Positions 3,738-60,690 of a stretch of DNA of 64,000 nt are shown in pieces; position 1 is the first letter of the stretch, and every line of letters starts with the position of its first letter. The stretch is from Deltaproteobacteria bacterium. Lineage in GTDB: Bacteria; Desulfobacterota; GWC2-55-46. The notes under the pieces were generated by a model, which did no database searches, had not been told where the DNA came from, and was given only the letters and a program-made list of their open reading frames with translations. Both the position numbers and the translations under genes were made by a program. The DNA lies in assembly GCA_016234855.1 (NCBI GenBank), contig JACRNO010000060.1, positions 9,595-73,594 on the forward strand. The letters run 5' to 3'.

Positions 3738-5632
3738 TCCGATATTGGTTGTTTTTCGTCACCTGCCGGCCCCGGGGTTGCCTCCTGCGGCACAGGGCCC
3801 TGCGGCGCGGCAGGAGGCTCGCCAAGATACGCCTTGATCACGGCGCGCGCCACGGGCGCGGCCGCCGAGGCCCCGAAGCCGCCGTGTTCGACGATAACGG
3901 CAACGGCGATCCTGGGGTCGTCATAAGGCGCAAAACCCGCAAACCACGCATGATCGCGGAACTTGTACTGTATCGACTTGACATCCTTCGTCCTCTCTAT
4001 CAATTTGGTGACCTGAGCGGTGCCGGTCTTGCCGGCAATCTTCAACCCGCTGGCCGCGAGAAAATGCGCGGTGCCGCCATCTTCATGCACGACCCCGAAC
4101 AGGGCTTCCCGCACATAGGCCAGATTTTCGAACGATATCGGCAAAGCGCCGGCCGCCACCGGGGTAAAGACCTGCGCCGGGCCGCCGTCCTGACGGGTTA
4201 TCTCCTCAACAAGCTGCGGTTGGTAGAGCGTGCCTCCGTTGGCTATGGCGGCGTATGCCGAGGCAAGCTGCAACGGGGTGACGAGCATATAACCCTGTCC
4301 CACCGAGACGGATATCGTCTCGCCCTCGTACCACCGCTTGCCGTAGGTCTTCTGCTTCCATTCGGGAGAAGGCACCAGCCCGCTCTTCTCGTTGGCAAGC
4401 CCGATTCCGGTGCGCGTCCCGAACCCGAACCCCTTGGCATACATGGCCAGCCTGTCTACGCCGAGCTTGAGACCCACCTGATAAAAGAATGTATCGGATG
4501 ATTCCACTATGGCCCTATGCACCCCTATTATACCGTGGCCTTCGGGCTTCCAGTCCCTGTAGCTGCGATTTGCGTACCTGAACGCAGGGCCTGAATATAT
4601 CCGCGTCTGCGGGGTTACCTCGCCTTCCTCAAGGGCCGCGGCGGCATGCAGCGGCTTGAAGGTGGACGCAGGCGGATAGAGGCCCTGTATCGCCCTGTTG
4701 TTCATGATATTGAGCGGGTTTCCGATAAGCGCGGCCCAGTCTTCGGTTGAGATACCCGTGGAGAGCTGATTCGGGTCAAAACCCGGGGTGCTTACCATGG
4801 CCAGCACCCTGCCGCTGGACGGCTCTATGGCCACTACCGCGCCGACGCTGCCGCGAAGCGCTTCCCACGCGGCCATCTGCGTCTCAAGGTCTATGGTGAG
4901 CCTGACGTCGCCGCCCGGACGGGGCGCCAGCCAATTGACGAGTTTTATCTTCCTGCCGAGCGCGTCGACTTCTATTTCCTTGCCGCCGTCGATACCGCGT
5001 ATCGCGGTCTCAAGCGATTTTTCCAACCCGTACTTGCCTATATAGTCGCCGAGGTTGTAACGATCTTCCGGCTTCGACTCAGACAGTTCCTTGTCGTTTA
5101 TCTCGCCGAGATAGCCTACGAGATGAGCGAACGCCTCCCCGTAGATATACAGTCTCTTCGGCGAGACCTCCAGTATGACGCCGGGCATCTCGAACTTGTA
5201 GGTCTCCACCTTGACCGTCTCCTCCCAGGTCAGCTCCTCTTTTAGCTTTATCGCCTGGAAGGGCGGACGACCCTTCGCCTTCTTTATCTTCTCGTCGATA
5301 TCAACCGGCTCGATATTGACGAGACGCTTGAGCATCTGTCTGGTCTGATCCCAGTCCTTTACGTCCTCAGGCACGAGATACAACTCGTAGCCTGGACGGT
5401 TGTCCGCGATCTTGAACCCGCCGCTGCTGTATATAACGCCGCGCGGAGCGGTAGACCTCAGAAGGCGGATGGAGTTATTCTGCGCAAGCTCGGCATACCT
5501 GTCGTAGTCCTTTACCTGCAGGAGCCACAGGCGCACGGCCAATATAAAAAAGGCCGCGCCCACTATTATCATGGCGGCGAAGACCCTTCTTTTGAGATCG
5601 ACCGGCTCCTTGTCCCCGAAGTATCCGCTCAA
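3734..5632 (-). CDS. mrdA: Penicillin-binding protein 2 (transpeptidase)
   Basis: 632 aa with N-terminal TM anchor, STFK (PASTFKP), SSD (SxN-like) and KTGTA motifs of class B PBPs. Overlaps mreD by 4 nt. Confidence 0.85.
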   Translation of the reverse strand: MSGYFGDKEPVDLKRRVFAAMIIVGAAFFILAVRLWLLQVKDYDRYAELAQNNSIRLLRSTAPRGVIYSSGGFKIADNRPGYELYLVPEDVKDWDQTRQMLKRLVNIEPVDIDEKIKKAKGRPPFQAIKLKEELTWEETVKVETYKFEMPGVILEVSPKRLYIYGEAFAHLVGYLGEINDKELSESKPEDRYNLGDYIGKYGLEKSLETAIRGIDGGKEIEVDALGRKIKLVNWLAPRPGGDVRLTIDLETQMAAWEALRGSVGAVVAIEPSSGRVLAMVSTPGFDPNQLSTGISTEDWAALIGNPLNIMNNRAIQGLYPPASTFKPLHAAAALEEGEVTPQTRIYSGPAFRYANRSYRDWKPEGHGIIGVHRAIVESSDTFFYQVGLKLGVDRLAMYAKGFGFGTRTGIGLANEKSGLVPSPEWKQKTYGKRWYEGETISVSVGQGYMLVTPLQLASAYAAIANGGTLYQPQLVEEITRQDGGPAQVFTPVAAGALPISFENLAYVREALFGVVHEDGGTAHFLAASGLKIAGKTGTAQVTKLIERTKDVKSIQYKFRDHAWFAGFAPYDDPRIAVAVIVEHGGFGASAAAPVARAVIKAYLGEPPAAPQGPVPQEATPGPAGDEKQPISD

Positions 5633-6164: not shown

Positions 6165-7019
6165 TCAGTCCCTGGAATAAAAACCGGTGTCCGTTACAAC
6201 GGAGACCTCTTCGAGCGTCGAAAGCCTCATGGCCGGGCGCACCTCGATGGTCTTGAAGAAGTTGTCCTTGCTCTTTTCTATCTTCGATATCTCGCCCACG
6301 ACGAGCCCCTTCGGGAATATGCCGGTTATGCCGGATGTCAATATACGGTCGCCGACGCGCACGTCGTCGTCGAGCATGATATACTTGAGCGCAAGCCCGT
6401 CCGCGCCGTTGCCCTCGGCCACGCCCTTTATCCTCGTGCGCTCGACGAATACGTCTATATCGCTCCTGACGTCAATCGCGAGGAGCACCGTGGACGTCGA
6501 GGCGCCTGGCTCGATGACGCGCCCCATCACCCCTTCGGGAGAGATTACGGCAAGGTCCTTTACCATGCCGTCGGAGGCCCCCTTGTTTATGGTTACAGTG
6601 CGCGCCCAGAGGCCCCCGTCATAGGCGACTATGCCGGCCGCCGTGGAATGCCATGGCACCGCCTCCCGGTAGTTGAATAACTCGCGCAAACGGAGATTGA
6701 GCGCGACATCTTCTTTCAGACGGTCATTTTCGCTCCGAAGGGACTCGACCTGCTTTTTGAGTTCCGCATTCTCGTCATTGAGGCCTATAAGGAAGACATA
6801 ATGCGACCATGCCCCGGTAACGGTCGAACTCGTTCCGAGTATCAGCCTCTCCAACGGGGTTACGATAGCGGAAAGCGTCTGTCTGACGATATAGCCGCGC
6901 GGGACGTCCTTCTGGTATGTAAGCGCGAGGTGGAGCGAGTAGAGGGCAAGCAGGAACGAGACTAATATGAGATGATGTCTCTTTAAGAAAAGGCTTAACT
7001 TGCGTTCGGAGATACGCAT
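6165..7019 (-). CDS. mreC: Rod shape-determining protein MreC
   Basis: 284 aa with N-terminal TM, a coiled-coil segment (ENAELKKQVESLRSENDRLKEDV) and C-terminal beta domains. Downstream of mreB. Confidence 0.8.
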   Translation of the reverse strand: MRISERKLSLFLKRHHLILVSFLLALYSLHLALTYQKDVPRGYIVRQTLSAIVTPLERLILGTSSTVTGAWSHYVFLIGLNDENAELKKQVESLRSENDRLKEDVALNLRLRELFNYREAVPWHSTAAGIVAYDGGLWARTVTINKGASDGMVKDLAVISPEGVMGRVIEPGASTSTVLLAIDVRSDIDVFVERTRIKGVAEGNGADGLALKYIMLDDDVRVGDRILTSGITGIFPKGLVVGEISKIEKSKDNFFKTIEVRPAMRLSTLEEVSVVTDTGFYSRD

Positions 7020-7160: not shown

Positions 7161-8192
7161 CTAATCGGGTATCGTAACGTCGCGCAGCAGCCTTATCTCG
7201 TCCAGCACCTTGCCCGCGCCCTTGACGACACAGGTCAGCGGGTCGTCGGCCACGGTCACGGGCAGCTGGGTCTCTTCCCTGAGTATGACATCGAGGTTCT
7301 TGATGAGGGCGCCTCCGCCGGCAAGGACTATGCCCTTGTCAACGAGATCCGCCGCAAGCTCCGGCGGGGTCGTCTCAAGGACATGCTTTATCGCCTCTAT
7401 GAGCGAGTTGATAGGCTCGGCCAGGGCCTCCCTTATCTCGGAGCACTCTATCTCAAGGATGGTCGGGATGCCGGTTATCAGGTTGGAACCTTTAATCTCT
7501 ATCTTCGGGCGGCGGTCGTCCGGCATGGGAAGACCGATATCCATCTTGAGCGCCTCGGCAACGCCCGTGCCTATGGAAAGGTTGTACTTCCTCTTTATAT
7601 ACTGGACAAGCACCTCGTCGAGCTTATCGCCGCCGACCCTGATGGACTTGGCCTGAACTATGCCGGCAAGCGAGATGACCGCTATCTCGGAGGTGCCTCC
7701 GCCGATATCGACTATCATGTTGCCGGACGGCTCGGTTATCGGCAATCCCGCGCCTATGGCTGCGGCCATGGGCTCCTCGATGAGATATACCTCGGCCGCT
7801 CCGGCCGAATACGCCGACTCCTTAACCGCCCTCTTCTCGACCTGGGTTATGCCGGACGGCACGCCTATGACGATGCGCGGACGCACAAGCAGACGGCGGT
7901 TGTGCACCTTTGCGATAAAATACTTCAGCATCTCCTCGGTAATCTCAAAGTCGGCTATGACGCCGTCCTTGAGCGGCCTGATGGCCGCGATATTGCCCGG
8001 CGTGCGGCCAAGCATAGCCTTGGCCTCTTTGCCGACGGCCAGCACGCGCTTGCCCTTGCCGTCTTTCTTGACGGCGACGACCGACGGCTCGTTGATGACT
8101 ATGCCCTTGCCCTTGACGTATATAAGCGTCGAGGCCGTGCCGAGGTCTATTGCGAGGTCGTTTGAAAAGAACCCGAGTATGTAATTGAACAT
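7161..8192 (-). CDS. mreB: Rod shape-determining protein MreB (actin-like ATPase)
   Basis: 343 aa. N-terminus MFNYILGFFSNDLAIDLGTASTLIYVKGKGIVINEPSVVAV is near-identical to canonical MreB. Confidence 0.95.
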   Translation of the reverse strand: MFNYILGFFSNDLAIDLGTASTLIYVKGKGIVINEPSVVAVKKDGKGKRVLAVGKEAKAMLGRTPGNIAAIRPLKDGVIADFEITEEMLKYFIAKVHNRRLLVRPRIVIGVPSGITQVEKRAVKESAYSAGAAEVYLIEEPMAAAIGAGLPITEPSGNMIVDIGGGTSEIAVISLAGIVQAKSIRVGGDKLDEVLVQYIKRKYNLSIGTGVAEALKMDIGLPMPDDRRPKIEIKGSNLITGIPTILEIECSEIREALAEPINSLIEAIKHVLETTPPELAADLVDKGIVLAGGGALIKNLDVILREETQLPVTVADDPLTCVVKGAGKVLDEIRLLRDVTIPD

Positions 8193-8526: not shown

Positions 8527-10446
8527 ATGCTTGAGAGCATCAGAAAGAGACAGAAATCCATCGTCATACTGGTCGCCTTCGCGGCCATCATCATCGTCTT
8601 CGTCTTCTGGGGGGTCGGGCCGGACGGCATGAAGAAGACCTCGGAGATGGCCGTGGCCGAAGTAAACGGCGAGACGATAAGCGGCAAGGAATACGCCGCC
8701 ATGTACAAGCGCCAGGTCGAATACTACAAGTCCATATTCAAGGGACAGTACAACGACGAGATGGCAAAGACCCTCCGGCTGAAGGAGAAGTCGCTCGACG
8801 TCCTCGTCAACAAGAGACTCGTGCTCAAGGACGCGGCTGACAGGGGCATGACCGTGACGGAGGCCGAGATGCAGGACTACATAAAGAACGTCGACGCATT
8901 CAAGAAGGACGGGGCCTTCGACCTGGCAACATACAGGCGGGTGCTTGACGCAAACCGGCTCACCCCGGCGGAATTCGAGCAGAACGTGCGGGGCGACATG
9001 CTCTACAACAAGATATACGCCGCGGAGACCAGGGACATAACGGTTACCGGCGCCGATATCAAAGAAGCCTACATGACGGAGAACAGGGAATTCTCCTACG
9101 ATTACGCCACAATCAACCCTGATAAATACGTTGCCAGGGTTCAGGTCACTGACGAGGAGGCAAAGAAGTTCATGCAGGAGAACGTCTCATCCTTCATGGA
9201 GCCGCTCAAACTCAACGCCTTCTACGTGAAGGCCGATATAGGCGCGTTCGAGAAGAAGGTCAAGGTCGACGGGGCCGAGATAAAGGAATATTACGAGAAG
9301 AACATCAAACAGTTCGAGATACCCGAGAGCGTGGCCGCAAGGCACATACTGATAAAGACGGACCCAACGGCCAAAGACCAAGCCAGGGACAAAGAGACAG
9401 CCAGGGCAAAGGCCGAAGAGATACTTAAAAAGGCTCAGGCTGGCGCGCCGTTCACCGAACTCGCAAAGAAGAACTCGGCGGACCTCTCGTCGGCAAGGCA
9501 GGGCGGAGACCTCGGCTGGTTCCAGAGGGGACAGATGGTAAAGCCCTTTGAAGACGCGGCCTTCTCTCTCAAAAAAGGAGAGACGAGCGGGTTAGTCGAG
9601 ACGGCCTTCGGTTTTCACATCATACAGGTCTACGACAAAAAAGAGCCTCAGGCCGCGCCGCTCAAAGAGGTCGAGGGACAGATAAAAAGTCTCCTCGCTA
9701 AAGAAAAGGCGTGGAAGACCGCCAGCGATATGATGGTGGCCCTGATAAAACCCTTAACCGACGCGAAGACGCCGGCCGAGCTCAGGAAGGCGGCAACGGA
9801 GCGCGGACTTAAGGGCATGGAGACGGGCCTTATCACGGAGGCCGACAGGAGCTCCGTGATATCGTCCGACGAAATCCTGCGTGGCAGCGCCTTCTCGCTG
9901 CGCCAGGGCGAGGTCTCAAGACCGCTTCAATCAAACCAGGCGTTCTATCTCATCAAGGCGATCGAGAGGATAGACCCGGCCGCACAGGACTTTGCAAAAG
10001 CGGCGCCGGTCATAAGGAACGCGCTTAAGGCAAGAAAAGCGGATGAACAGGCGTCCAGGGCCGCCGAAGAGCTCCTGAAGAAGGCCGTTGAAAAAAAGGA
10101 CCTTGCCACCGTTGCAAGGGACGCGGGCCTGAAGGTGGAACAGACCGGCCCGTTCAGCATGCAACAGGGCGTTATCAAGAAGCCCGGGTACTTTGTCAAG
10201 GACAAGCCAAAATTCTTCGAGGCCACAAAAGACGCGCCCTTCTACCCGGAAGTTGTGAAGGTCAAGGACGGCTATGCCGTCTTCAAGCTCAGAGACGTCA
10301 AGGATGCGAATATCGCCGGGCTTGAGAAGGTCAAAGCCGAACTTGAAAAGAACCTGCTCGCGAAGAAACAGAACGACGCCCTGGAGAAATGGATAAAAGG
10401 GCTTCGCGAGAAGGCGAAGATACAGATTCACCAAGATAGACTATAG
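8527..10446 (+). CDS. ppiD: Periplasmic chaperone / peptidyl-prolyl cis-trans isomerase PpiD-like (SurA N-domain plus PpiC-type rotamase domain)
   Basis: 639 aa with N-terminal TM helix. The parvulin domain region (ARHILIKTD ... [42 protein letters not shown]) matches the PpiC rotamase signature. GGAGG SD before the ATG. Confidence 0.8.
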
Positions 10447-12283: not shown

Positions 12284-12452
12284 AATTTTGTCCCGCGTTT
12301 ATTGTCATTTCGACCGAAGGGAGAAATCTTAAGATTCCTCACATTTGATAAGTTACAAGACAAGATTCCTCGGTCGCTTGTGCGCTAACGTTATGTCTTT
12401 GGCGCCTTCGCTTCCTCGGAATGACAGCGAAATGTAATTAATCAGAGGTTCC
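12284..12452. mobile_element. MITE-like element copy 2 (one clear TIR, internal GTCATTTCG...CGGAATGACA palindrome)
   Basis: Right TIR TAATTAATCAGAGGTTCC at 12435-12452. Shares the CTTGTGCGCTAACGTTATGTCTTTGGCGCC module with copy 1 and with 13495-13520 and 44391-44430. Confidence 0.5.
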
Positions 12453-12458
12453 CTGAGA

Positions 12459-12617
12459 ATGCAAAAACTCATCGCATGGATAGGCGCTATTATCGTGAGC
12501 TCCATCGGTTGGTGGGTCGGCAGTCAGATAGGCCTGATGACGGCGGTGATACTCTCGGGCATAGGCACTGGCGTGGGGTTCTACTACGGCATGAAGCTCG
12601 CAAAAAGATGGCTATAG
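12459..12617 (+). CDS. Hypothetical small hydrophobic protein (52 aa, Gly-rich, two predicted TM segments)
   Basis: ATG ORF MQKLIAWIGAIIVSSIGWWVGSQIGLMTAVILSGIGTGVGFYYGMKLAKRWL, below the 60-aa track cutoff. GAGG 10 nt upstream is supplied by the terminal repeat of the adjacent MITE-like element. Confidence 0.35.
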   Translation: MQKLIAWIGAIIVSSIGWWVGSQIGLMTAVILSGIGTGVGFYYGMKLAKRWL

Positions 12618-12819: not shown

Positions 12820-13254
12820 TCAACACGCGGCCCCTCCTGACCATGAACAGGTGCCGTCAGTCAACATCGTAACCGTTCCGTGCGCCCCGGTTGAATTCGG
12901 GTTGGTGACGGAGACAATATAGGAGTCGGCTATCCCGCCGGCCCCTGCGGTAATTGTGAGGACATTGTCTTTACTAACGACAAAGTAGGCTGTGCCAATT
13001 GTAACAGACGAAGGGCCGGTGAGCGCAGGCAGGGCGAGATAAGTCTTCGCATCAACGAAATAGGCCTCTTCCTGTATAAGGGCGTTCCTTGCGTCGTTTA
13101 CCATGCTTGCATTTATGGCGCGTTCCTTGAACGCCGAGTACTGAGGGATGGCTATGCTTGCAAGAAGCGCAATAATCGCAACGACCATCAGAAGCTCGAT
13201 AAGCGTGAAACCGGCGTCCCTTGACTGCGAATGAGATGAGATTGACAACATCAT
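12820..13254 (-). CDS. Type IVa pilin-like protein (second, divergent pilin paralogue)
   Basis: Class III signal motif G/FTLIELLMVVAIIALLASIAIPQY with Glu5, plus a C-terminal Cys pair (DGTCSWSGGAAC). The track start is the TTG at 13305. The ATG at 13254 (MMLSISSHSQSRDAG|FTLIE, GGAG 6 nt upstream) is more plausible. The leader is atypical, with few basic residues. Confidence 0.75.
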   Translation of the reverse strand: MMLSISSHSQSRDAGFTLIELLMVVAIIALLASIAIPQYSAFKERAINASMVNDARNALIQEEAYFVDAKTYLALPALTGPSSVTIGTAYFVVSKDNVLTITAGAGGIADSYIVSVTNPNSTGAHGTVTMLTDGTCSWSGGAAC

Positions 13255-13303
13255 CCTCGGCTCCATAGAGGCAAAATGAAATATGACAAGACCCACATGT
13301 ACC

Positions 13304-13572
13304 AAGGAACTTCTGATTAATTATATTCTGCTGTCATTCTGAAGGAGTCCAGCACCACCTTGCGTCGCCAAGTTTAGTTTTGGCACGAACTTTTGTGATG
13401 GAAAGTGGTGCTGGACGACTGAAGAATCTCGTAACTATTTGATTTGCCAATAGACAAGATTCTTCCCCATTCGCTACGCTCAGGGCTAAAGGCGCAAAAA
13501 GCATAACGTTAGCGCACAAGGCTCACGCGCTCAGAATGACAGGCTCAGTAGAATAAATCAGAGGGTCCTTAA
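13304..13572. mobile_element. MITE-like element copy 3, abutting second pilin gene
   Basis: TIRs AAGGAACTTCTGATTAATTAT (13304-13324) and GAATAAATCAGAGGGTCCTTAA (13551-13572). Internal GTCATTCTGAAGGAG...CTCAGAATGACA palindrome and GCGCTAACGTTATGC module. Confidence 0.6.
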
Positions 13573-13820
13573 CAAAGCTTTGCTACATTCATGCCCGAGC
13601 AAGCCAAAAACTACATAATTATTCGGATATTCCATAAAAACATGCCACAGCATGTCGCCTCAATGACACTTTTTGCCTGATTTGACACACCTGGGAGTAA
13701 ATAACAGACCTGCACCTACAGATTAATACCACAAATTGACGCTATTGTCACATATATTTTGCAACAACTAAAAAATACCTTCATTTGCCATTAAGATATG
13801 ACACCCGCCAGGAAGAGAAC

Positions 13821-13857
13821 AAAAAAAACACCAAGGCAGGGTTCCCTGCCTTGGTGT
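13821..13857 (-). terminator. Intrinsic terminator downstream of pilA
   Basis: On the minus strand: CACCAAGGCAGGGAACCCTGCCTTGGTG hairpin followed by TTTTTTTT, 37 nt after the pilA stop. Confidence 0.8.
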
Positions 13858-13893
13858 CACGGGCCAGTCTCTAATCAAACCGGCTTCCGTCTA

Positions 13894-14364
13894 TTAGCAA
13901 ACGGCGGCGTTGGCATACGTGCAAACTCCGAGTTGGTTGTACGTAAGATCGCCGTAGGCGCCGGCAGTAGACGAACCTGAATTGGCGTTAGCAACAGTTA
14001 TGGTGAAGGTACCGGTGCCAAAAACACCTGCGGTTGTTGCTATGGTAACAGTATTGCCGAGGCTGACCTTGACAGAGTAGGTATTCAGCCTGGTCGCGCC
14101 GTTCCAAGTCATAATGGCAGGGCCAACGCCGCTTATGCCGTTCGCATCCATATAAGAGTTTTCGTCTGACATGGTTGCCTCGAGATTGGTCGCGGTATTC
14201 CTTGCGTCCGCTACCATCGACGCCCTTACGCCCCTCTCTCTGTAGGCCGAGAACTGCGGGATGGCGATTGCCGCGAGGATGGCGATAATCGCGACGACGA
14301 TGAGCAACTCGATGAGCGTAAAGCCTTCTTCATTCTTCTGTCTCTTAAGCATTTCCTTTAACAT
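13894..14364 (-). CDS. pilA: Type IVa major pilin PilA (Geobacter-type N-terminus, full length)
   Basis: 156 aa. MLKEMLKRQKNEEG|FTLIELLIVVAIIAILAAIAIPQFSAYRE closely resembles Geobacter/Desulfuromonadales PilA. C-terminal disulfide loop CTYANAAVC. Perfect AGGAGG SD 6 nt before the ATG. Sigma-54 promoter and intrinsic terminator flank the gene. Confidence 0.9.
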   Translation of the reverse strand: MLKEMLKRQKNEEGFTLIELLIVVAIIAILAAIAIPQFSAYRERGVRASMVADARNTATNLEATMSDENSYMDANGISGVGPAIMTWNGATRLNTYSVKVSLGNTVTIATTAGVFGTGTFTITVANANSGSSTAGAYGDLTYNQLGVCTYANAAVC

Positions 14365-14438: not shown

Positions 14439-14455
14439 TGCAATGCCCGTGCCAA
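14439..14455 (-). promoter_or_regulatory. Sigma-54 (RpoN) -24/-12 promoter of pilA
   Basis: Minus-strand reading gives TGGCAC-GGGCA-TTGCA, an exact match to the TGGCAC-N5-TTGCW consensus. It sits about 75 nt upstream of the pilA ATG. Confidence 0.8.
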
Positions 14456-14531: not shown

Positions 14532-14566
14532 TCACCGAAGTGACAAAAATTGTCACTTCGGTGATG
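14532..14566 (-). promoter_or_regulatory. Tandem dyad (TGTCAC-N4-GTGACA twice) candidate PilR enhancer
   Basis: 33-bp perfect palindrome TCACCGAAGTGACAA-AAA-TTGTCACTTCGGTGA centred about 95 bp upstream of the sigma-54 -24 element. This geometry is typical for bacterial enhancer-binding proteins. Confidence 0.55.
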
Positions 14567-14613
14567 GAGTTAATCTGCGGCGCGCAAGACATAACCCCTC
14601 CCGGCCTCCCCTT

Positions 14614-14716
14614 AAATAAGGGGAGGAGAAAGACAACTCTCCCCCGAGACGGAGGGCAGGCAACCTCTGCAAGTTTGCTTAAATAAGGGGAGGAGAAAGA
14701 CAACTCTCCCCCTCTT
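14614..14716. repeat. Two 35-bp direct repeats CTTAAATAAGGGGAGGAGAAAGACAACTCTCCCCC (GGGGAG hairpin family)
   Basis: Copies at about 14614-14650 and 14681-14716, each containing CCCCTTAAATAAGGGG and GGAGAAAGACAACTCTCC hairpins. Related GGGGAG/CTCCCC hairpins occur at 37930-38010, 44290-44370 and 59040-59150. Confidence 0.6.
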
Positions 14717-14748: not shown

Positions 14749-16158
14749 CTACTCCTCCCCCACCCCATATTTGCTCAGCTTATAGCGCATGGCGCGAAAC
14801 GACATGCCAAGAAGCTCGGCAGCCTTCTTCTTTGCCCCGCCAGTAACCTTCAATGCGTCCATAATGGCCGTCCGCTCGAACTCTTCAACGGTCTTTTCAA
14901 GGTCAAACCCTGCCCCCTCTTTCAAGCGCGCAGGCGTAAGCCCCACGCGCTCGGCTGTATCCCCCTGCCCGGCCGCCTTCGGGGCCTGGCGCGCATGCAG
15001 GGGCAGGCTCTCCACGGTAATCAGATCGGAAGGCTCAAGGGCAACGGCGCGCTCCATTATGTTTTCAAGCTCGCGCACGTTGCCCGGATAATCGTATTCC
15101 ATGAGCGCGGCCATCGCCGGCGCGGAGATTACGGTTATGGTCTTGCCCATATCCTTATTATACTTCTCAAGAAAGTGCCTCGCTAAAAGCGGGATATCTT
15201 CTTTACGCTCGCGTAAGGCCGGCATATCGATACGTATCACGTTCAACCTGTAGAAGAGGTCTTCCCTGAACCTGCCCGCCTTGACCTCGGCCTCGAGGTT
15301 CCTATTTGAGGCGGCAATGAGCCTTATATCGACCGGTACATCGACAGTGCCGCCGACCCTGCGAAACCGCCTCTCCTGTATAAAACGCAGGAGCTTGACC
15401 TGAAGGTGCAGAGGCATCTCGGTCAACTCGTCGAGGAAGAGCGTGCCGCCGTCCGCCTCCTCGGCCAGCCCCTGCTTATTGGCCACCGCCCCTGTGAACG
15501 CGCCTTTCTGATGACCGAAGAGCTCGCTCTCAAGGAGGTTCTCGGGTATGGCCCCGCAGTTGACCGCGACGAACGGCGCGTCTTTCCTGTCGCTCTCGTG
15601 CCATATCGCCCGCGCCGCGATCTCCTTGCCCGTGCCGGATTCCCCGGTGATAAAGACGTTGGTCTTGCCCTTTGCTATGCTTACGATAAGCTGATATACC
15701 TCAGTCATCCTCGGGCTTGCCCCCACCATGTTTGCAAACCCGAACCTGGCCTTGCAATCGTCCTTAAGCAGCTTGTTCTCGAGTTCAAGCCGCCTGAGCT
15801 TCAGGGCCTTACGGATATTGAGCTTTATCTCGTCCACGTTGAACGGCTTGGTGAAATAATCAAACGCGCCGGCCTTCATGGCCTCAACCGCGGTATCGAC
15901 CGAGGCATATGCGGTAATCATTATGACGATGGTCTCGGGGGCCAGTTCCTTGACGGCCTTGAGAAACTCCAGGCCCGTCATGCCGGGCATCTTTAGGTCC
16001 GTCAGCACGAGGTCGCATCTGTTCTCCCTGCAGAACTCAAGCGCGGCAGCGGGAGCCGGGAAACTGCGCGCCTCGTAGCCTTCCTTGCGGAGCATTATCT
16101 CCAGAAAATCCCGCATGTCTTTCTCGTCGTCTACTATTATAATCCTCGGCGCGCTCAT
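14749..16158 (-). CDS. pilR: Sigma-54-dependent response regulator PilR (NtrC family)
   Basis: 469 aa with a REC domain (IIIVDDEKDMRD...D...K), an AAA+ sigma-54 activator domain (GESGTGKE, ESELFGH) and a C-terminal HTH. Sits between pilS and pilA as in Geobacter and Pseudomonas. Confidence 0.9.
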   Translation of the reverse strand: MSAPRIIIVDDEKDMRDFLEIMLRKEGYEARSFPAPAAALEFCRENRCDLVLTDLKMPGMTGLEFLKAVKELAPETIVIMITAYASVDTAVEAMKAGAFDYFTKPFNVDEIKLNIRKALKLRRLELENKLLKDDCKARFGFANMVGASPRMTEVYQLIVSIAKGKTNVFITGESGTGKEIAARAIWHESDRKDAPFVAVNCGAIPENLLESELFGHQKGAFTGAVANKQGLAEEADGGTLFLDELTEMPLHLQVKLLRFIQERRFRRVGGTVDVPVDIRLIAASNRNLEAEVKAGRFREDLFYRLNVIRIDMPALRERKEDIPLLARHFLEKYNKDMGKTITVISAPAMAALMEYDYPGNVRELENIMERAVALEPSDLITVESLPLHARQAPKAAGQGDTAERVGLTPARLKEGAGFDLEKTVEEFERTAIMDALKVTGGAKKKAAELLGMSFRAMRYKLSKYGVGEE

Positions 16159-16214: not shown

Positions 16215-17930
16215 CTACGCCCCGACGGCGTCCTTCTTTCTGTTCGCATTCTCCGTCATCAATCCATGCAACGGCAGAAGTATCTTGAAGACCGTGCCGG
16301 AGCCGAGGCTGCTTCTGGCGTCGATTGTGCCCTCATGGCTCTCTATAATCCTGTGTATGATGGCAAGGCCGAGGCCAGTGCCGGTATCCTTGGTCGAAAA
16401 GAACGGGTCGAATATCCTCTTGAGGTCGTCCTGCTTGATGCCGCAGCCGGTATCCGTCACCAGCACCTCCGCATACGAGCGATGCGCGCCCCCGGACAGA
16501 CGGCTGTCCGCGGAATTGTCGTTATGCAATATCCTTGAAGTCAAGGTCAAGGTGCCGCCGTTCGGCATGGCATGGGCCGCGTTTACGAAAAGGTTCCAGA
16601 AGACCTGCCCTAACTGCCGCTCCAGGCCGTTGACGTACAACCCCTCGCCGAGGTTGCTTTTGATATTGATGCCGGCAGCCTCAGGGCTGTTTTCAAAGAC
16701 CTTTACCGTGCCCCTTATGACCGCGGCGAGATCGACCCTGTCTCTCTTGCCGGTGGCAGGTTTAGCGAAGAGCAGGTAGTCGGTTATGAGCTTATTGAGC
16801 CGTTCGGTCTCGCGCACCACTATCTCCATCAGATGGGCGTTATCTCCGCTCAGACGGAGTTCGTCACTGAGCACCTGTATGGAGCCGCTTATGGAGGCCA
16901 GCGGGTTTCTTATCTCATGCGCTATGCCTACGGAGAGTTCGCCAAGGGCCTTGAGCTTCTCGCTCACGCGAAGCCTTTCCTCCATCGCCTTTATCTGCGT
17001 CATATCCTCGAAGATGATAATGTAAGCGGCCTCCCCGCCCTCGCCCCTGGAGATGGTATACCCGATACATACCTCTACGCCGTCCTTTTTTCTGAAGTTC
17101 TTTTCCGCGCGAAGGCTCTCTCTGGGCGAATCGCCCGGGGCGCCCTGCATCATATCCGGGAATATCTCACGCGCGTCCTTGTAGTATACGTCGCGCAGGT
17201 TATACCCCGTAACATGGGTCGCCTCCTTGTTAAACGAGGTTATCCGCAATAGTTCGTCAACGGTCATTATGCCGCTCGTAATGTTCTCGACTATCAGACG
17301 ATTGAGACTCTCGAGTCTGTCGAAGTCTATCTCCTTCGCTTCAAGCCTCTTTTCGACCTTGGCCATTGACTCGGCAAGATAGCCTGCCAGATACGCAATA
17401 ATGAAATAAGCAAGGATATTCGTCGTTATGGTCGTAAATACGTCCGCCCACAAAGGCGCGGCCACGTGGACGCCGAAGACCTTGAATTTTGCGGGAAGCA
17501 CCCTATAGTAGTCAAGGTCTATCAATACGCCATAACAGATGGCGGAGAGGGCTGCCGCGTAAAGACCTCCGCGCTTATTAATGATAATGGCGCCGCCTAT
17601 GACGACCAACGGATAAAGGACGTGAAGATAGCTCTCCACCCCGCCGGTGATATATACGATAAGCGTTATCAGAAGGATATCCGCCGTGACCTGCATGTAG
17701 ACGAAGAGCTTGAGGTTGGCTATCCGCTTGAATACGATGGCATAGAAGATTGAGAAGAGACCGACAAGGACAACTATTGCATAGAGGGGCGTAAAATTGA
17801 TATCTGCGGTGGAGGAGGCCTTTATCTGAAACCACGAGGTTATGCTCAGGAACGCAAGCCCGAGGACAACCCTAAGCACCATCATGGCCAGGAGTTTAGC
17901 CCGGAACGCGCTTATGGGGCTTTCCTGCAT
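16215..17930 (-). CDS. pilS: Sensor histidine kinase PilS
   Basis: 571 aa with a multi-TM N-terminal domain, PAS-like region, HisKA (GIAHEIRNPLASI) and HATPase_c. Immediately upstream of pilR. Confidence 0.85.
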   Translation of the reverse strand: MQESPISAFRAKLLAMMVLRVVLGLAFLSITSWFQIKASSTADINFTPLYAIVVLVGLFSIFYAIVFKRIANLKLFVYMQVTADILLITLIVYITGGVESYLHVLYPLVVIGGAIIINKRGGLYAAALSAICYGVLIDLDYYRVLPAKFKVFGVHVAAPLWADVFTTITTNILAYFIIAYLAGYLAESMAKVEKRLEAKEIDFDRLESLNRLIVENITSGIMTVDELLRITSFNKEATHVTGYNLRDVYYKDAREIFPDMMQGAPGDSPRESLRAEKNFRKKDGVEVCIGYTISRGEGGEAAYIIIFEDMTQIKAMEERLRVSEKLKALGELSVGIAHEIRNPLASISGSIQVLSDELRLSGDNAHLMEIVVRETERLNKLITDYLLFAKPATGKRDRVDLAAVIRGTVKVFENSPEAAGINIKSNLGEGLYVNGLERQLGQVFWNLFVNAAHAMPNGGTLTLTSRILHNDNSADSRLSGGAHRSYAEVLVTDTGCGIKQDDLKRIFDPFFSTKDTGTGLGLAIIHRIIESHEGTIDARSSLGSGTVFKILLPLHGLMTENANRKKDAVGA

Positions 17931-17947: not shown

Positions 17948-19168
17948 CTATCCGGCCGCGCCGGCAAGAGCGAATATCGGCAGGTAAAGCGCTATAACCA
18001 ATCCGCCGACGGTGACGCCGAGGAATGCCATCAACATCGGCTCGATAAGGGAGGTCAGCGCCTCGACCGCCGAGTCAACCTCTTCTTCATAGAAGTCGGC
18101 AATCTTGTTGAGCATGGCGTCGAGCGCGCCGGTGGACTCACCGACGCCTATCATCTGCACGACCATGCCAGGGAAGACCTTGGACTCCGCAAGAGGCTCC
18201 GCAAGCGTCTTGCCCTGCGACAGACTTACACGCGCCTGCATGATGGCTTCTTTAATAATGGTATTGCCTGCGGTGTTGGCGACGATTTCAAGGGCCTCGA
18301 GGATGGGCACGCCGCTGGATAGCATGGTGCCGAGCGTCCTTGTAAAGCGGGCGGTGGAAGACTTTCTTACAAGATCGCCCATGACCGGGAGCTTCAGCAA
18401 TATGCTGTCAATAATCTTCTTGCCCTTAGGGGTTCCGTTGGCATGCTTGATGCCGAAAAAGACAGCCACGAGAAACCCGACAATTATATACCACTGGTGC
18501 TTGAGGAAGTTACTCATGTTAACGACCATCTGCGTGGGCAAAGGCAGCGCCTTGCCAAAACCTGCAAACATGCCCTCGAATATCGGCACGACGAAGATAA
18601 GGAGACCGGAGACGATAAGCGTGGCTATGACTATTACCGCCGTAGGATAGGTCATCGCGCTCTTGACCTTACTCTTTAGCTTCTCGGCCTTCTCAAGGAA
18701 GCCGGAGAGCCTTGCAAGGATGGTATCGAGGATACCGCCGACCTCGCCGGCGGCGACAAGGTTTACATAAAGGTTATCGAAGACCTTTGGGTGCTTTCTG
18801 AGAGAATCGGCAAAGGTTGCGCCGCCTTCAACCGAGTTCTTTACCTCGCCGATGACCCTTTTGAACTCCTTGTTTTCATTCTGGCTGCCCAGCAGGTCGA
18901 GACACTGGACAAGCGGCAGACCGGCGTCAATCATGGTGGCGAACTGACGGCTGAAAATAACGAGCTCTTTGGTGGGCACACCCCCGCCGGGCTTGAAACT
19001 CTTAAGCTTATCCATGAGGCCGCCGCCCACGCCCTTCTCAGTAACCGAGGTCGCGTTGATCTGCATCCTCTTGATGGTGGCGTTGGCTTGAGCAAGGGTT
19101 GCGGCCTCGACCTCGCCGCTGCGTGACTCTCCGGCGATATTCTTACCAGTGTATACGAATGTCGGCAT
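17948..19168 (-). CDS. pilC: Type IV pilus inner-membrane platform protein PilC (GspF family)
   Basis: Two GspF-like repeats with three TM segments. MPTFVYTGKN... is the conserved PilC start (ATG at 19166-19168). The track ORF is extended to 19228. Confidence 0.9.
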   Translation of the reverse strand: MPTFVYTGKNIAGESRSGEVEAATLAQANATIKRMQINATSVTEKGVGGGLMDKLKSFKPGGGVPTKELVIFSRQFATMIDAGLPLVQCLDLLGSQNENKEFKRVIGEVKNSVEGGATFADSLRKHPKVFDNLYVNLVAAGEVGGILDTILARLSGFLEKAEKLKSKVKSAMTYPTAVIVIATLIVSGLLIFVVPIFEGMFAGFGKALPLPTQMVVNMSNFLKHQWYIIVGFLVAVFFGIKHANGTPKGKKIIDSILLKLPVMGDLVRKSSTARFTRTLGTMLSSGVPILEALEIVANTAGNTIIKEAIMQARVSLSQGKTLAEPLAESKVFPGMVVQMIGVGESTGALDAMLNKIADFYEEEVDSAVEALTSLIEPMLMAFLGVTVGGLVIALYLPIFALAGAAG

Positions 19169-19393
19169 AGTTTTATCTTCTCGTTGGCCGCCCTCGATAT
19201 TCATAAAAACGAATATAAAGAGAAGCAATTATTGAAACTGTCGCCATTGTCATGAGCCGGACTCACGACGTCAAAAAAAATCTCAGTACCTGGGCGCGCC
19301 GTATAAAATCGTCTCTCACAACGGCATGCGATTGTAATTATATCACACTTTTGTCATTCATCAAACCCGGAGACTGAAAGCGGCATGCCGGCC

Positions 19394-20524
19394 CTACCTC
19401 ATTGGCGCGCCAGGCTTCACTATTCCGGCATTGGCAAGCATCTGTTTCAACTCATCCGGCTCGGAACTGCGCCCCATCGCCTCGTCCATGTTGATAAGCC
19501 GCCTGCCGACAAGATTGACGAGGCACTGGTTCATCGTCTGCATGCCGAACTTGGACTGACCGACCTGCATCTGGGAGTAGACCTGATGGACCTTATCCTC
19601 GCGGATGAGGTTCCTTATGGCGGCGTTAGGCACCATTATCTCCAACGCGACGCACCTGCCCTTGCCGTCGGCCCTCGGTATCAGGAGCTGCGAAAGCACG
19701 CCCTCGAGCACGAACGACAACTGCGCGCGAATCTGCGGCTGCTGGCCCGAAGGAAATACGTCGACGACCCTGTTTATCGTCTGAACGCATGAGTTCGTAT
19801 GCAGGGTGGCGAAGCACAGATGGCCCGTCTCGGCGACGGTCAGCGCGGTCTCTATGGTCTCGATATCGCGCAGCTCGCCGAGCAGGACGACGTCCGGGTC
19901 CTGACGCAATATATACTTGAGGGCCTTTTTAAAGGCATGTGTGTCATATCCCACCTCGCGTTGATTGACGAGCGCCTTCTTTGACGGATGGAGATATTCT
20001 ATCGGGTCTTCGACCGTAATGATATGCTCGTGCCTCTCCGAATTAATCTTGTCTATCATGGCGGCAAGCGTTGTCGTCTTGCCGCTGCCGGTGGGGCCGG
20101 TAACAAGGATTAGACCGCGCGGTTTTTTACAAAGTTCTTCGAGTATCGGCGGCAGGCCGAGTTCCGTAAAGGACTTTATCTGGAATGGAATAGTCCTGAA
20201 AACGCCTGCAACGGTGCCCCGTTGCACGAAAAGATTGCCCCTGAAACGGCTGAGGCCTTTGAGGCCGAAAGAGAAGTCAAGCTCATTTTCTTCTTCAAAT
20301 TTGTGTTTCTGCGTGTCCTGGAGAATCGTGTAGCATATCTGCTTCGTCTCAACGCCGCTTAGCACCGCCGCGCCGGGCACGGGCTGAAGCGAGCCGTGCA
20401 CGCGCATCCTCGGCGGGGAGTTTGCGGATAAGTGCAGGTCGGAGCCCCCCTTTTCTATCATAATTTTCAAGAGGTCCTGGAGATTGTACTTTGCTCCCCC
20501 GCCGCCTTCGACCGCCATTATCAA
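19394..20524 (-). CDS. pilT: Twitching motility ATPase PilT
   Basis: 376 aa. Walker A GPTGSGKTTT, Asp box and His box (ATLHTN) of PilT-class secretion ATPases, with no N-terminal GSPII extension. AAGGAG SD. Confidence 0.9.
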   Translation of the reverse strand: MIMAVEGGGGAKYNLQDLLKIMIEKGGSDLHLSANSPPRMRVHGSLQPVPGAAVLSGVETKQICYTILQDTQKHKFEEENELDFSFGLKGLSRFRGNLFVQRGTVAGVFRTIPFQIKSFTELGLPPILEELCKKPRGLILVTGPTGSGKTTTLAAMIDKINSERHEHIITVEDPIEYLHPSKKALVNQREVGYDTHAFKKALKYILRQDPDVVLLGELRDIETIETALTVAETGHLCFATLHTNSCVQTINRVVDVFPSGQQPQIRAQLSFVLEGVLSQLLIPRADGKGRCVALEIMVPNAAIRNLIREDKVHQVYSQMQVGQSKFGMQTMNQCLVNLVGRRLINMDEAMGRSSEPDELKQMLANAGIVKPGAPMR

Positions 20525-20654: not shown

Positions 20655-22358
20655 CTAATCGGCCATCGTCACCCTCATGATCTCTTCGATGGTGGAGACA
20701 CCCTCAAGCACCTTGGTGATACCGCTCATACGAAGCGTCTTCATCCCGTCTTTGATGGCAATCCTTTTAATCTCCGAGGTAGGGGCGCCGTTCAACACCG
20801 CCTCCTTCAGGGCATCCGTAAAAGGCATGACCTCGTAAAGCGCTATCCTGCCCTTGTACCCGCTTCCGTTGCACGTCGCGCACCCCGCGCCCTTGTAGAC
20901 CTCAACCCCGGCGTCTATAATGTCCTGCGCGACGCCGAAGGTCTTTAACAAGGCCTCGGACGGCTGTGGGGCCTTGACCTTGCAGTCCTTGCATACCTTA
21001 CGGGCGAGCCTCTGGGCCAGGATGAGGTTACATGCGGACGAGACGAGGAACGGTTCTATACCCATGTTAAGCAGCCTGTTAACGGTGCCCGGGGCGTCGT
21101 TCGTATGGAGAGTGGAAAGCACCAAATGACCCGTAAGCGCGGCCTTGACCGCGATCTCGGCCGTCTCATAGTCGCGTATCTCTCCGACCATGATAACGTC
21201 CGGGTCCTGACGCAGGAAGCTCCTCAGCGCCGCCGCGAAGTTCAGGCCGATATCGTCGTGCATCTGACACTGGTTTATGCCGCCGAGATTGAACTCGACT
21301 GGGTCTTCCGCGGTCGAGATATTCTCGCTCACCTTGTTAAGGTCTGAGAGGGCTGAATAAAGCGTCGTCGTCTTGCCGGAGCCGGTCGGGCCGGTGACGA
21401 GGCAGATGCCCCACGGCTTGTGGATGGCGTGCATGAAGTCGTCAAGGGCCTTCTGCTCGAAACCGAGCTTGGTCATGTCGAGCTGCAGGTTGCCCTTGTC
21501 GAGGAGACGCAAGACCGTCTTCTCGCCGAAGAGCGTCGGCAGCACGGAGACGCGGTAGTCCATCTCCTTGTTCTTGGCGAGCTTGAGCTTGATCCTGCCG
21601 TCCTGCGGCAGCCTGCGCTCGGCGATATCGAGATTGGCGATGATCTTTATCCTGGACGTGATGGCGTTTCTGAGCTTCATGGGAGGCTTCATCACCTCCT
21701 GAAGCACGCCGTCAATCCTGTAACGCACGCGGAAGGACTTTTCATAGGGCTCGATATGGATATCGGAGGCGTTCTTCTTGATGGCGTCGGTGAGTATCAT
21801 GTTGACGAGCTTGACGACAGGGGCGTCTTCAACGGCCTTCTTGAGGTCGTTGACGTCGACGTCGTCTTCCTCCCTGACGACCTCCATGTCGGTGTCTTCA
21901 AAATCGCCGAGCATGCCTTCGAGGTTGGCCTCCGGCGATTCATACTGCTTTTCAATGGCGGCCTTTATGGCGGCCTCGGAGGCGATAAGCGGCTCGACGT
22001 TGTAACCGGTAAGGAATTTTATGTCGTCGATTGCGAAGATGTTGGACGGGTCGGCCATGGCCATGACCAACGTGGAGCCGGTCCTGTTAACCGGTATTAT
22101 CTGGTACTTCTGACAGACGTCCTCAGGTATGAGCTTTACGATTTCAGGGTCGATTTCAGCGGCGGCAAGGTCGATGGTGGGTATCCCGTACTGCCTGCTC
22201 AAAAAGGCGGTCAGGTCTTTTTCGGTAATGAATCCGAGCTTGGTGAGATTAAGACCAAGCCGGCCACCGCTCATCTTCTGCTCATCAATAGCCTTTTTCA
22301 ACTGCTCGGCCGTAATAAGCCTCTCTCTAAGTAGTAGTTCGCCGATTCTATCCGCCAT
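20655..22358 (-). CDS. pilB: Type IV pilus assembly ATPase PilB
   Basis: 567 aa. GSPII N-domain, Walker A GPTGSGKTTT, tetracysteine motif (CKDC...CATCNGSG). Confidence 0.9.
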   Translation of the reverse strand: MADRIGELLLRERLITAEQLKKAIDEQKMSGGRLGLNLTKLGFITEKDLTAFLSRQYGIPTIDLAAAEIDPEIVKLIPEDVCQKYQIIPVNRTGSTLVMAMADPSNIFAIDDIKFLTGYNVEPLIASEAAIKAAIEKQYESPEANLEGMLGDFEDTDMEVVREEDDVDVNDLKKAVEDAPVVKLVNMILTDAIKKNASDIHIEPYEKSFRVRYRIDGVLQEVMKPPMKLRNAITSRIKIIANLDIAERRLPQDGRIKLKLAKNKEMDYRVSVLPTLFGEKTVLRLLDKGNLQLDMTKLGFEQKALDDFMHAIHKPWGICLVTGPTGSGKTTTLYSALSDLNKVSENISTAEDPVEFNLGGINQCQMHDDIGLNFAAALRSFLRQDPDVIMVGEIRDYETAEIAVKAALTGHLVLSTLHTNDAPGTVNRLLNMGIEPFLVSSACNLILAQRLARKVCKDCKVKAPQPSEALLKTFGVAQDIIDAGVEVYKGAGCATCNGSGYKGRIALYEVMPFTDALKEAVLNGAPTSEIKRIAIKDGMKTLRMSGITKVLEGVSTIEEIMRVTMAD

Positions 22359-22445: not shown

Positions 22446-22596
22446 TTAAGGAAGCTCTGATTAATTCTGTTATTTGTCATTCCGAGGAGCGCTGTTGCGA
22501 CGAGGAATCTTGTAACTTGCTGAATTGCCTGCGAAACAAGATTTCTCGCTACGCTCGAAATGACAATTTGGTTGAATTAATCAGAGTTTCCTTAAT
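22446..22596. mobile_element. MITE-like element copy 4 (upstream of pilB)
   Basis: TIRs TTAAGGAAGCTCTGATTAATTC (22446-22467) and GAATTAATCAGAGTTTCCTTAA (22575-22596). Internal GTCATTCCGAGGAGCG...CGCTCGAAATGACA palindrome. Confidence 0.65.
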
Positions 22597-41310: not shown

Positions 41311-41459
41311 TTAAGGAACCTCTGATTAATTCATTTCTTTTCTGTCATTCTGAGGAGCGAAGCGACGAAGAATCTCGTAACTTGTTGAATTTCTTAGAAG
41401 CGAGATTCTTCGCTTCGCTCAGAATGACACCATTGTGGAATTAATCAGAGGTTCCTTAA
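41311..41459. mobile_element. MITE-like element copy 6 (compact 149-bp archetype)
   Basis: Perfect TIRs TTAAGGAACCTCTGATTAATTC (41311-41332) and GAATTAATCAGAGGTTCCTTAA (41438-41459). Internal palindrome GTCATTCTGAGGAGCGAAGCGACGAAGAATCTCGTAACTTG...CGAGATTCTTCGCTTCGCTCAGAATGACA. Confidence 0.7.
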
Positions 41460-44194: not shown

Positions 44195-44440
44195 ACCGCA
44201 TATGCACAAATGTAGCGCAGACCTTTAGGTCTGCCGTTTCGGCAAAACTACATCAGGGCTAAAGCCCTAAGCTACAAACCCATCATTGCTGCACTTGTAG
44301 GAATCCAGCGCCCCCTCATCCCGGCCTTCTCCCCAAGGGGAGAAGGAGCAGAACCTCCTCTCCCCTTTGGGGAGGCGCCAAAGGCGCTAAAGACATAACG
44401 TTAGCGCACACGACACAACGTTAGCGCACGAGAGGATTGA
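44195..44440. repeat. Mosaic of shared intergenic modules
   Basis: Contains GTAGCGCAGACCTTTAGGTCTGCC, CAGGGCTAAAGCCCTAAGCTAC, CTCCCCAAGGGGAGAAGGAG/CTCCCCTTTGGGGAGG hairpins and two copies of the ACAACGTTAGCGCAC module. Lies upstream of pycB. Confidence 0.5.
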
Positions 44441-52029: not shown

Positions 52030-52180
52030 ATTAAGGAACCTCTGATTAATTCGCAAACGTATGTCATTCTGAGCGGAGCGAAGAATCTCGTATATAGGCA
52101 AATCAACAAGTTACGAGATTCTTCAGTCGCTGCGCTCCTTCAGAATGACAGTAGGACAGAATAAATCAGAGCTTCCTTAA
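52030..52180. mobile_element. MITE-like element copy 7
   Basis: TIRs TTAAGGAACCTCTGATTAATTC (52030-52051) and GAATAAATCAGAGCTTCCTTAA (52159-52180). Same internal GTCATTCTGAGCGGAGCGAAGAATCTCGTA...CAAGTTACGAGATTCTTC...CAGAATGACA palindrome. Confidence 0.7.
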
Positions 52181-60395: not shown

Positions 60396-60690
60396 TTAAG
60401 GAAGCTCTGATTTATTCTGTCTTATTGTCATTCTGAAGGAGCGCAGCGACTGAAGAATCTCGTAACTTGTTGATTTGCCTATATACGAGATTCTTCGCGG
60501 AGTTTACCCTGAGCGAAAAACTGAGATTCTTCGCTTCGCTCAGAATGACATAGCGAAGGGCTCATAATGACATACGTTTGCAATTAATCAGAGCTTCCTT
60601 AACTCGAATTCGTCATTCCCGCGAACGCGGGAATCCAGAAATCACCAAGAGACTGGATTCCCGACTAAAGCATCGGGAATGACATTTATA
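60396..60690. mobile_element. MITE-like element copy 8 (composite: TIR-bounded unit 60396-60602 plus appended GTCATTCCCGCG...CGGGAATGACA module)
   Basis: TIRs TTAAGGAAGCTCTGATTTATTC and CAATTAATCAGAGCTTCCTTAA. The internal palindrome is duplicated/expanded. 60603-60690 carries the GGGAATCCAG...CTGGATTCCC module also seen at 30995-31090. Confidence 0.65.

Follow-up and report, generated by a model that had tools for sequence, protein, structure and literature searches.

A Tandem, Diverged Paralogue of the Presumed Major Type IVa Pilin in an Uncultured Deltaproteobacteria Lineage

Introduction

What role could a second complete pilin gene play when it stands directly behind the first one at a type IVa pilus locus? 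The question is raised by a 64,000-nt stretch of DNA (hereafter, the window) from the metagenome-assembled genome (MAG) of a Deltaproteobacteria bacterium belonging to an uncultured groundwater-type lineage. Here, pilA1 (13894–14364, minus strand) and pilA2 (12820–13254, minus strand) follow pilSR in tandem. The initial annotation had described them as two divergent, full-length type IVa pilins, and both open reading frames (ORFs) are found at these positions. Two roles had been proposed for the second gene, namely that of an alternative major pilin and that of an unrecognised minor pilin.

The locus probably forms the pilin-encoding end of an ordinary type IVa pilus cluster, in which pilA1 encodes the major subunit and pilA2, an old and retained tandem duplicate, encodes an alternative or low-abundance major-type subunit. 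The pair is a further instance of the known tandem major-pilin paralogues, and both genes are already annotated in GenBank.

Class Membership of the Two Pilins

PilA1 and PilA2 are type IVa-like pilins with a class III signal peptide: the cleavage site G/FTLIELL (the slash marks the cut) and E5 are present in both. PF07963 (N_methyl) is the sole Pfam match of either protein (37.7 bits for PilA1 and 33.1 bits for PilA2; cut-off, 21.2), TIGR02532 is matched with 32.1 and 33.5 bits (cut-off, 16.3), and the Pfam and NCBIfam matches of both are limited to the N-terminal methylation motif. The pilin fold, a helix at residues 17–68 with a small antiparallel sheet, is seen in both models (AlphaFold, confident, predicted local distance difference test (pLDDT) 91.9 for PilA1; AlphaFold2, good, pLDDT 80.0 for PilA2), and their fold matches are pilins.

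Both proteins end in C-x7-C (Cys134 and Cys142 in mature PilA1, Cys121 and Cys129 in mature PilA2), and these two cysteines do not vary among 70 full-length homologues of several phyla (134–174 aa; Deltaproteobacteria and Thermodesulfobacteriota MAGs, Thermodesulfovibrio and Nitrospiria). A C-terminal disulfide loop had been claimed for PilA1; its cysteine pair is indeed present, and the bond itself is putative in both pilins. The loop of seven residues is shorter than in the pilins of Pseudomonas aeruginosa and Neisseria.

The product of pilA1 (156 aa) comprises a 14-aa leader (MLKEMLKRQKNEEG, then F1) and a mature part of 142 aa, and AGGAGG is located 6 nt 5' of the ATG. In GenBank the gene starts four codons later (152 aa, P0001; MBI5886433.1, prepilin-type protein); the longer form is favoured since the pilin of the close relative L087 also begins with MLKEIL. 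The first pilin is, as had been stated, not truncated and has no separate PilA-C. For pilA2, the GenBank form (12820–13251, 143 aa; MBI5886432.1, P0121, prepilin-type protein) could be extended to 144 aa from an alternative ATG at 13254, with GGAG 6 nt upstream of it; the mature protein has 129 aa. An unusual non-basic leader of 14 residues had been ascribed to PilA2. It is near-neutral, but the string quoted for it has 15 residues, a 14-residue leader being obtained from the second Met, and the contrast with PilA1 is modest, since the PilA1 leader also has 14 aa and a net charge of only ~+1.

The two pilins are 41% identical over the full length and agree at 22 of the 28 positions 1–28. Past residue 28 the identity is ~34%, and in the globular domain ~29–35%; the ~40% previously given for the region beyond the helix applies only to the full length.

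Is the Geobacter-Like N-Terminus a Sign of Conductive Pili?

Mature residues 1–28 of PilA1 are identical to those of Geobacter PilA at 27 of 28 positions, in line with the near identity reported at first. Among solved structures, the "Geopilin domain 1" chains of Geobacter (9egp, 7tgg and 2m7g/6vk9) are closest to both pilins by sequence, over the first ~58–67 residues only. The combination of such an N-terminus with a full-length pilin had been regarded as noteworthy. The motif FTL.ELLIV.AII.ILAAIA.PQ..Y..R is, however, essentially invariant in the 70 full-length homologues, and the Geobacter-like N-terminus is therefore the norm of this family.

The same 27 residues could suggest that one or both proteins are conductive e-pilins for extracellular electron transfer, and the aromatic residues of PilA2 at positions 1, 24, 27, 50, 51 and 57, with a largest aromatic-free gap of 22 residues, also point that way. 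The published criteria for e-pilins are at least 9.8% aromatics, gaps of at most 22 aa, and aromatics at 1, 24, 27, 50/51 and 32/57 (bioRxiv 10.1101/668343). An analysis of aromatic spacing, proposed as a check, gave 7.7% aromatics and a 29-residue aromatic-free gap for PilA1, in which positions 50 and 51 are both non-aromatic; PilA2, with 7.8% (8.5% with His counted), departs from the aromatic limits in density alone, and neither protein is a truncated pilin of ~60 aa accompanied by PilA-C. The N-terminal motif is, moreover, common to full-length pilins of many lineages, and even for Geobacter PilA filaments a conductive role is under dispute. The structures 6vk9 and 9egp are those of PilA-N/PilA-C heterodimer filaments. 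A conductive function of either protein is thus extremely unlikely.

Is PilA2 a Minor Pilin?

According to the second proposed role, PilA2 would be a minor pilin of the priming/tip complex. Low abundance would be expected of a second gene behind a terminator, the near-neutral leader is atypical, and the minor pilin PilE of P. aeruginosa (4noa) is among the best Foldseek matches of PilA2, beside the pilins 6xxd, 1oqw and 1ay2. The NCBIfam models of minor pilins and pseudopilins (GspH, ComGD, GspJ and others), however, are matched in the N-terminal motif only, with 16–29 bits against cut-offs of 49–169, so that none of the cut-offs is approached. The best sequence matches are Geobacter PilA-N and other major pilins, major pilins also prevail among the fold matches, and the length class and the terminal C-x7-C are those of the major-pilin family. 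For core minor pilins, a separate operon of the fimU-pilVWXY1E type is the normal location; pilA2 adjoins the major pilin gene and is not part of a pilVWXY1-type operon. A minor-pilin function is quite improbable on these grounds. The role of an alternative major pilin, also proposed at the outset, fits best, given the same architecture of the two proteins and the purifying selection on the orthologues of PilA2 described below.

The Second Pilin in Related Loci

Contigs with PilA1 homologues were scanned for pilin motifs, which resulted in nine distinct loci including the window. A tandem second pilin is present in five of them (the window, L001–L003, L084/L085, L086 and L087), and a single pilin in L006, L088, L089 and L090. 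Synteny is identical in L087 (GCA_001798415.1; pilR-pilin-pilin-proS-ppiD), whose PilR and ProS are 81% and 85% identical to those of the window. The order is pilB-T-C-S-R-pilin-pilin in L084/L085 and pilS-R-TPR-TPR-pilin-pilin in L086, and in L001–L003 the pair lies beside the polysaccharide-export genes for Wza, Wzi and GNVR. In these last three contigs, the second pilins (8513–8950 in L001, 8513–8950 in L002 and 8513–8941 in L003) are intact orthologues of pilA2 with 142–145 aa that are not among the called genes; they appear to have been missed by annotation.

A scan of GTDB genomes with PilR retrieved mostly paralogous regulators of the NtrC family, and only L004–L009 look orthologous. 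In L004 (JACRCM010000152.1, 3644–8791), whose PilR is the most similar one among the GTDB representatives (78%), pilR is followed by a LuxR-type regulator and not by a pilin. Together with the position of the pair beside polysaccharide-export genes in L001–L003, this indicates that the pilin pair changes its genomic location between relatives. Outside the clade of the window organism, the nearest PilR matches are only ~54% identical.

In the globular domain, PilA2 of the window is 43% identical to the second pilin of L001 and 41% to that of L003, whereas cross comparisons with the first pilins give 28–32%, and all three second pilins end in TDGxCSWxxGxxC. The duplication is consequently older than the split between the L001/L003 and window lineages. 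The two copies of L084, L086 and L087 resemble each other more, which points to independent duplications or gene conversion in these loci.

Between L001 and L003, the ratio of nonsynonymous to synonymous substitution rates (dN/dS) amounts to 0.19 in the first pilin and 0.22 in the second (dS ~0.6); the latter value indicates that selection maintains the second pilin. In the comparison of the window with L087, the dN of the pilins is 0.39–0.50, compared with 0.11–0.13 for pilR/proS, i.e., the pilins change three to four times faster, as expected of surface-exposed subunits. Horizontal acquisition of pilA2 was considered and is not supported: its GC content of 0.53 and third-position GC content (GC3) of 0.59 are near those of pilA1 (0.53 and 0.64), the values of both genes being somewhat lower than those of the neighbouring genes.

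Regulation of pilA1

A sigma-54 promoter, TGGCACGGGCATTGCA (14439–14454, minus strand), is located 74 nt upstream of the pilA1 ATG and is the sole zero-mismatch TGGCAC-N5-TTGCW site in the 64 kb. In L006, L084, L086 and L087, the first pilin has an equivalent -24/-12 promoter at a distance of ~70–80 nt from its start codon, and a slightly variant one is found at the matching place in L001 and L003. A repeat search revealed a perfect 15+15 palindrome (14532–14564; GTGACAA-ttt-TTGTCAC, core 14540–14556, GTGACAAtttTTGTCAC) ~100 nt upstream of the pilA1 promoter. The box TGACA-N5-TGTCA recurs ~100–120 nt upstream of the first-pilin promoter in seven loci, i.e., the window, L001 (~7756–7795), L003, L006, L084 (~6800–6830), L086 (~6810–6850) and L087 (~3815–3860), the positions being those of the inverted repeat TGACAA-N5-TTGTCA. 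Its conservation makes it a candidate PilR site (upstream activating sequence) of the lineage, to which PilR may bind.

An intrinsic terminator (13820–13858, minus strand; 14-bp perfect stem, 4-nt loop, T8) follows pilA1, as had been noted. It has a counterpart at the equivalent place in L001, L084, L086 and L087, and every pair has a terminator between its genes.

In the proposed scheme, PilS/PilR would sense and respond, PilR would bind at 14540–14556 and activate the sigma-54 promoter at 14439–14454, and transcription would mostly end at the hairpin at 13820–13858. The pilin of Geobacter sulfurreducens has an RpoN (sigma-54) promoter under PilR control (PMC2725144), and the layout of the promoter region in the window matches that published arrangement. 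With its predicted promoter and the candidate activator site beside pilR, pilA1 has the features of a PilS/PilR/sigma-54-type pilin gene; pilA2 of the window lacks them.

Expression of pilA2

A miniature inverted-repeat transposable element (MITE) had been noticed at the 5' end of pilA2. This element, copy A (13302–13572, 271 bp), is confirmed by its terminal inverted repeats and by at least seven copies of its family in the window; 48 nt separate its end from the first ATG of pilA2 downstream of it, and it occupies the position where the promoter of pilA2 would be expected. The second pilin gene of L087 is preceded by a sigma-54-type promoter of its own, TGGCGCGCATATTGCA (4881–4896), at 67 nt from the ATG, and the window spacer contains no recognisable counterpart. 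When the pilA1-pilA2 spacer was aligned with its L087 counterpart, the only match was the 12-nt CATATT(T/G)CATTT, and no promoter was convincingly conserved. A degenerate sequence upstream of the MITE, TGGCATGTTTTTATGG, was rejected as a promoter since the -12 GC is missing. The pilin-pilin spacers of L001, L003, L084 and L086 (~85–125 nt) contain a terminator only, which makes read-through the likely route to the second pilin there.

Several observations weigh against the interpretation of pilA2 as a working subunit gene of a complete type IVa system with PilA1 as the major subunit. A consensus scan of the window found neither a sigma-54 nor a sigma-70 promoter in the stretch from the terminator to pilA2, and a strong terminator and the highly structured 271-bp MITE separate the gene from the pilA1 promoter. 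The genes pilD and pilMNOPQ and a minor-pilin operon are absent from the 64-kb window, which concerns the completeness of the machinery. PilA1 is presumed to be the major pilin from promoter strength, gene order and number of homologues, and from these only. Finally, the orthology of the second pilins of L087 and the window is positional only, as their sequences are no closer to each other than the first pilin is to the second.

Some of these observations would also be accounted for if pilA2 were silent and decaying in this genome, i.e., if the MITE had cut the gene off from its promoter and left an intact, unexpressed relic. The absence of a recognisable promoter behind the terminator, the MITE end 48 nt from the ATG and the promoter of the second pilin in L087 are in favour of such a scenario. 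It is opposed by the state of the gene: the ORF is intact and keeps G-1, F1, E5, both cysteines and the Shine-Dalgarno sequence, an independent Logan assembly carries the identical sequence (P0241), and the orthologues are under purifying selection. Furthermore, MITEs often carry or create outward promoters, and copy A contains a perfect TATAAT near its pilA2-proximal end (found by eye, unscored). A silent pilA2 is unlikely in view of these arguments. That the second gene might be a pseudogene had been named as an outcome that would overturn the initial proposal; it is intact here, in the independent assembly, and at the same position in the close relative L087.

Judged by its sequence and conservation, PilA2 is a conserved paralogue of the major pilin, neither a pseudogene nor a typical minor pilin. 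If it is a working subunit, PilA2 would most likely be processed and polymerised by the same machinery as PilA1, since the G-1/F+1 site, E5, the near-identical hydrophobic alpha1-N and the terminal C-x7-C are shared. It could then serve as a major-type subunit that is either scarce or an alternative to PilA1, joining PilA1 in one filament or being employed in different conditions. The MITE would have landed in the pilA1-pilA2 spacer, and expression of pilA2 could be achieved via read-through of the terminator or from an unrecognised promoter.

Comparison with Known Pilin Systems

The locus resembles that of G. sulfurreducens in its gene order through pilR, in the pilin directly downstream and in the nearly identical first 28 mature residues. 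In Geobacter, however, a 61-aa PilA-N (GSU1496) and a separate PilA-C (GSU1497) take the place of the single full-length 142-aa pilin found here, and the aromatic density of the Geobacter pilin is higher. The product of the second gene of the window, unlike Geobacter PilA-C, is a complete pilin that has a leader and an alpha1 helix of its own, and neither profile nor single-sequence searches of PDB revealed similarity to PilA-C or "Geopilin domain 2".

According to Shu et al. (2016, PMC5174107), the truncated pilins of Geobacter go back to full-length pilins with a Geobacter-type helix as their ancestral state. The pilins of the window share the conserved N-terminal helix and the variable beta-sheet C-terminal domain with the full-length pilins of Desulfuromonadales and "Deltaproteobacteria" (PMC5174107; Bray et al. 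2019, bioRxiv 10.1101/668343), although the host here belongs to an uncultured lineage and not to Desulfuromonadales. A tandem pair is described in neither of these two papers, and the word "tandem" is absent from the text of PMC5174107.

In the model of Shu et al., a pilin gene was first duplicated in tandem; copy 1 then lost its C-terminal domain and copy 2 its N-terminal helix, and the results were PilA-N and PilA-C (PMC5174107). That the pair of the window is a surviving example of the duplicated-gene stage of this model is very unlikely. If it were, PilA1 and PilA2 might already work as a two-subunit filament.

Two related major-type pilins in one organism are known from other bacteria. 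In Legionella pneumophila, PilA1 and PilA2 are encoded at one locus and only PilA2 behaves as a major pilin (PMC13170364). In Xylella fastidiosa, mutation of pilA1 and mutation of pilA2 affect twitching in opposite directions, and motility is lost when both genes are mutated (PMC9956873); in Thermus thermophilus PilA4 and PilA5 form part of wide and narrow pili (PDB 6xxd, 6xxe, 8qqj). The similarity to the window consists in two related major-type pilins per machinery, one dominant and the other modified or accessory, and in PilS/PilR control. The genes for Thermus PilA4 and PilA5 are, however, not adjacent. The roles in these three organisms were shown by experiment, whereas the pair of the window is known from its genes alone, and the sequences are unrelated past the N-terminal helix.

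The best NCBIfam match of both pilins is the myxococcal PilA, NF041775, in the N-terminal region (40–44 bits; cut-off, 400). Myxococcus xanthus has sigma-54-dependent pilS-pilR-pilA, with the same regulatory logic and gene order as here. Its mature PilA (208 aa, 8tj2) has a larger globular domain than the pilins of the window.

Gene Order and Machinery

The minus-strand order, established from the ORF list and Pfam, is pilB-pilT-pilC-pilS-pilR-pilA1-pilA2, so the type IVa assembly genes pilB, pilT and pilC, followed by pilS and pilR, lie on the same strand directly upstream of the pilin pair. The pilus extension ATPase PilB (20655–22358) is matched by T2SSE (6e-142) and MshEN, the retraction ATPase PilT (19394–20524, 376 aa) by T2SSE (4e-46), and the platform protein PilC (17948–19228) by two repeats of T2SSF (8e-68). 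The sensor histidine kinase PilS (16215–17930) contains 6TM_PilS, PAS, HisKA and HATPase_c, and the sigma-54-dependent response regulator PilR (14749–16158) contains Response_reg, Sigma54_activat and HTH_8. Just 3' of the pilR stop codon, two identical 35-nt direct repeats (14611–14645 and 14678–14712, minus strand) each contain a 9-bp GC-rich hairpin, then TTATTTAA; they may be duplicated weak terminators of pilR.

On the 3' side of pilA2, a 52-aa ORF, proS and ppiD are convergent with it. The 52-aa ORF (12459–12617, plus strand; MQKLIAWIGAIIVSSIGWWVGSQ...) would encode a glycine-rich, two-helix, membrane-like product, and its start abuts the end of MITE copy B. It has no Pfam match, and L087 has no room for a counterpart at the equivalent position.

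MITEs and Short Repeats

Elements of the MITE family (family 1, ~145–200 bp) are palindromic, occur about once per 8 kb and are always intergenic. Complete copies are located at ~13302–13572 (copy A), 22448–22593, 41313–41457, 52033–52178 and 60398–60600, and partial ones at ~300–610 and 12377–12457 (copy B). The units (145–271 bp) have terminal inverted repeats TTAAGGAAC-CTCTGATTAAT and inner arms TGTCATTCTGAG...GAAGAATCTCG and contain no ORF; being small, multicopy and bounded by terminal inverted repeats, they are classed as MITEs. All copies start and end with TTAA, which could be a target-site duplication or a part of the terminal repeat. No empty site was alignable in the L087 spacer. 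The RNA fold of copy A has -106 kcal/mol, and the folding z-scores of the elements against shuffled controls are -7.5 (copy A) and -11.5. A scan of the window with Rfam at gathering thresholds gave no match, for the MITE family or otherwise. A related element is present downstream of the pilin pair of L001 (~9080–9230).

Copy B was found by inverted-repeat and BLAST searches between proS and the 52-aa ORF, downstream of pilA2, and is inverted relative to copy A. The possibility that the two copies flanking pilA2 delimit a mobile cassette or an invertible segment was rejected, since the family is dense, the arms are short and only 82–91% complementary, and no recombinase gene is adjacent. The bracketing of pilA2 was treated as coincidental because of this density and because relatives keep the pair without a family-1 MITE between the genes.

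A second repeat of ~30 nt (family 2, CTTGTGCGCTAACGTTATGTCTTTGGCGCC) occurs alone, paired or nested in the MITE. The nested motif of copy A is at 13491–13520 (CTTGTGCGCTAACGTTATG..GCGCC), and the other sites in the window are at 520, 12380 and 44377–44432 (44409). Part of the pilin-pilin spacer of L087 (4580–4690) is filled by a degenerate tandem array of this repeat.

Conclusions

E-pili cannot be deduced from a Geobacter-like N-terminus, a motif that a large family of full-length pilins shares without variation. At the major-pilin locus of this uncultured lineage, the first pilin is usually followed, behind a terminator, by a second one that has diverged and is kept by selection, and some public MAG annotations leave this second pilin uncalled. 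For the model in which the split Geobacter pilin arose by duplication, the pair could provide a test. It also lends itself reasonably well to the question of whether mixed or alternative filaments are assembled by a single type IVa machine in anaerobic bacteria of groundwater.

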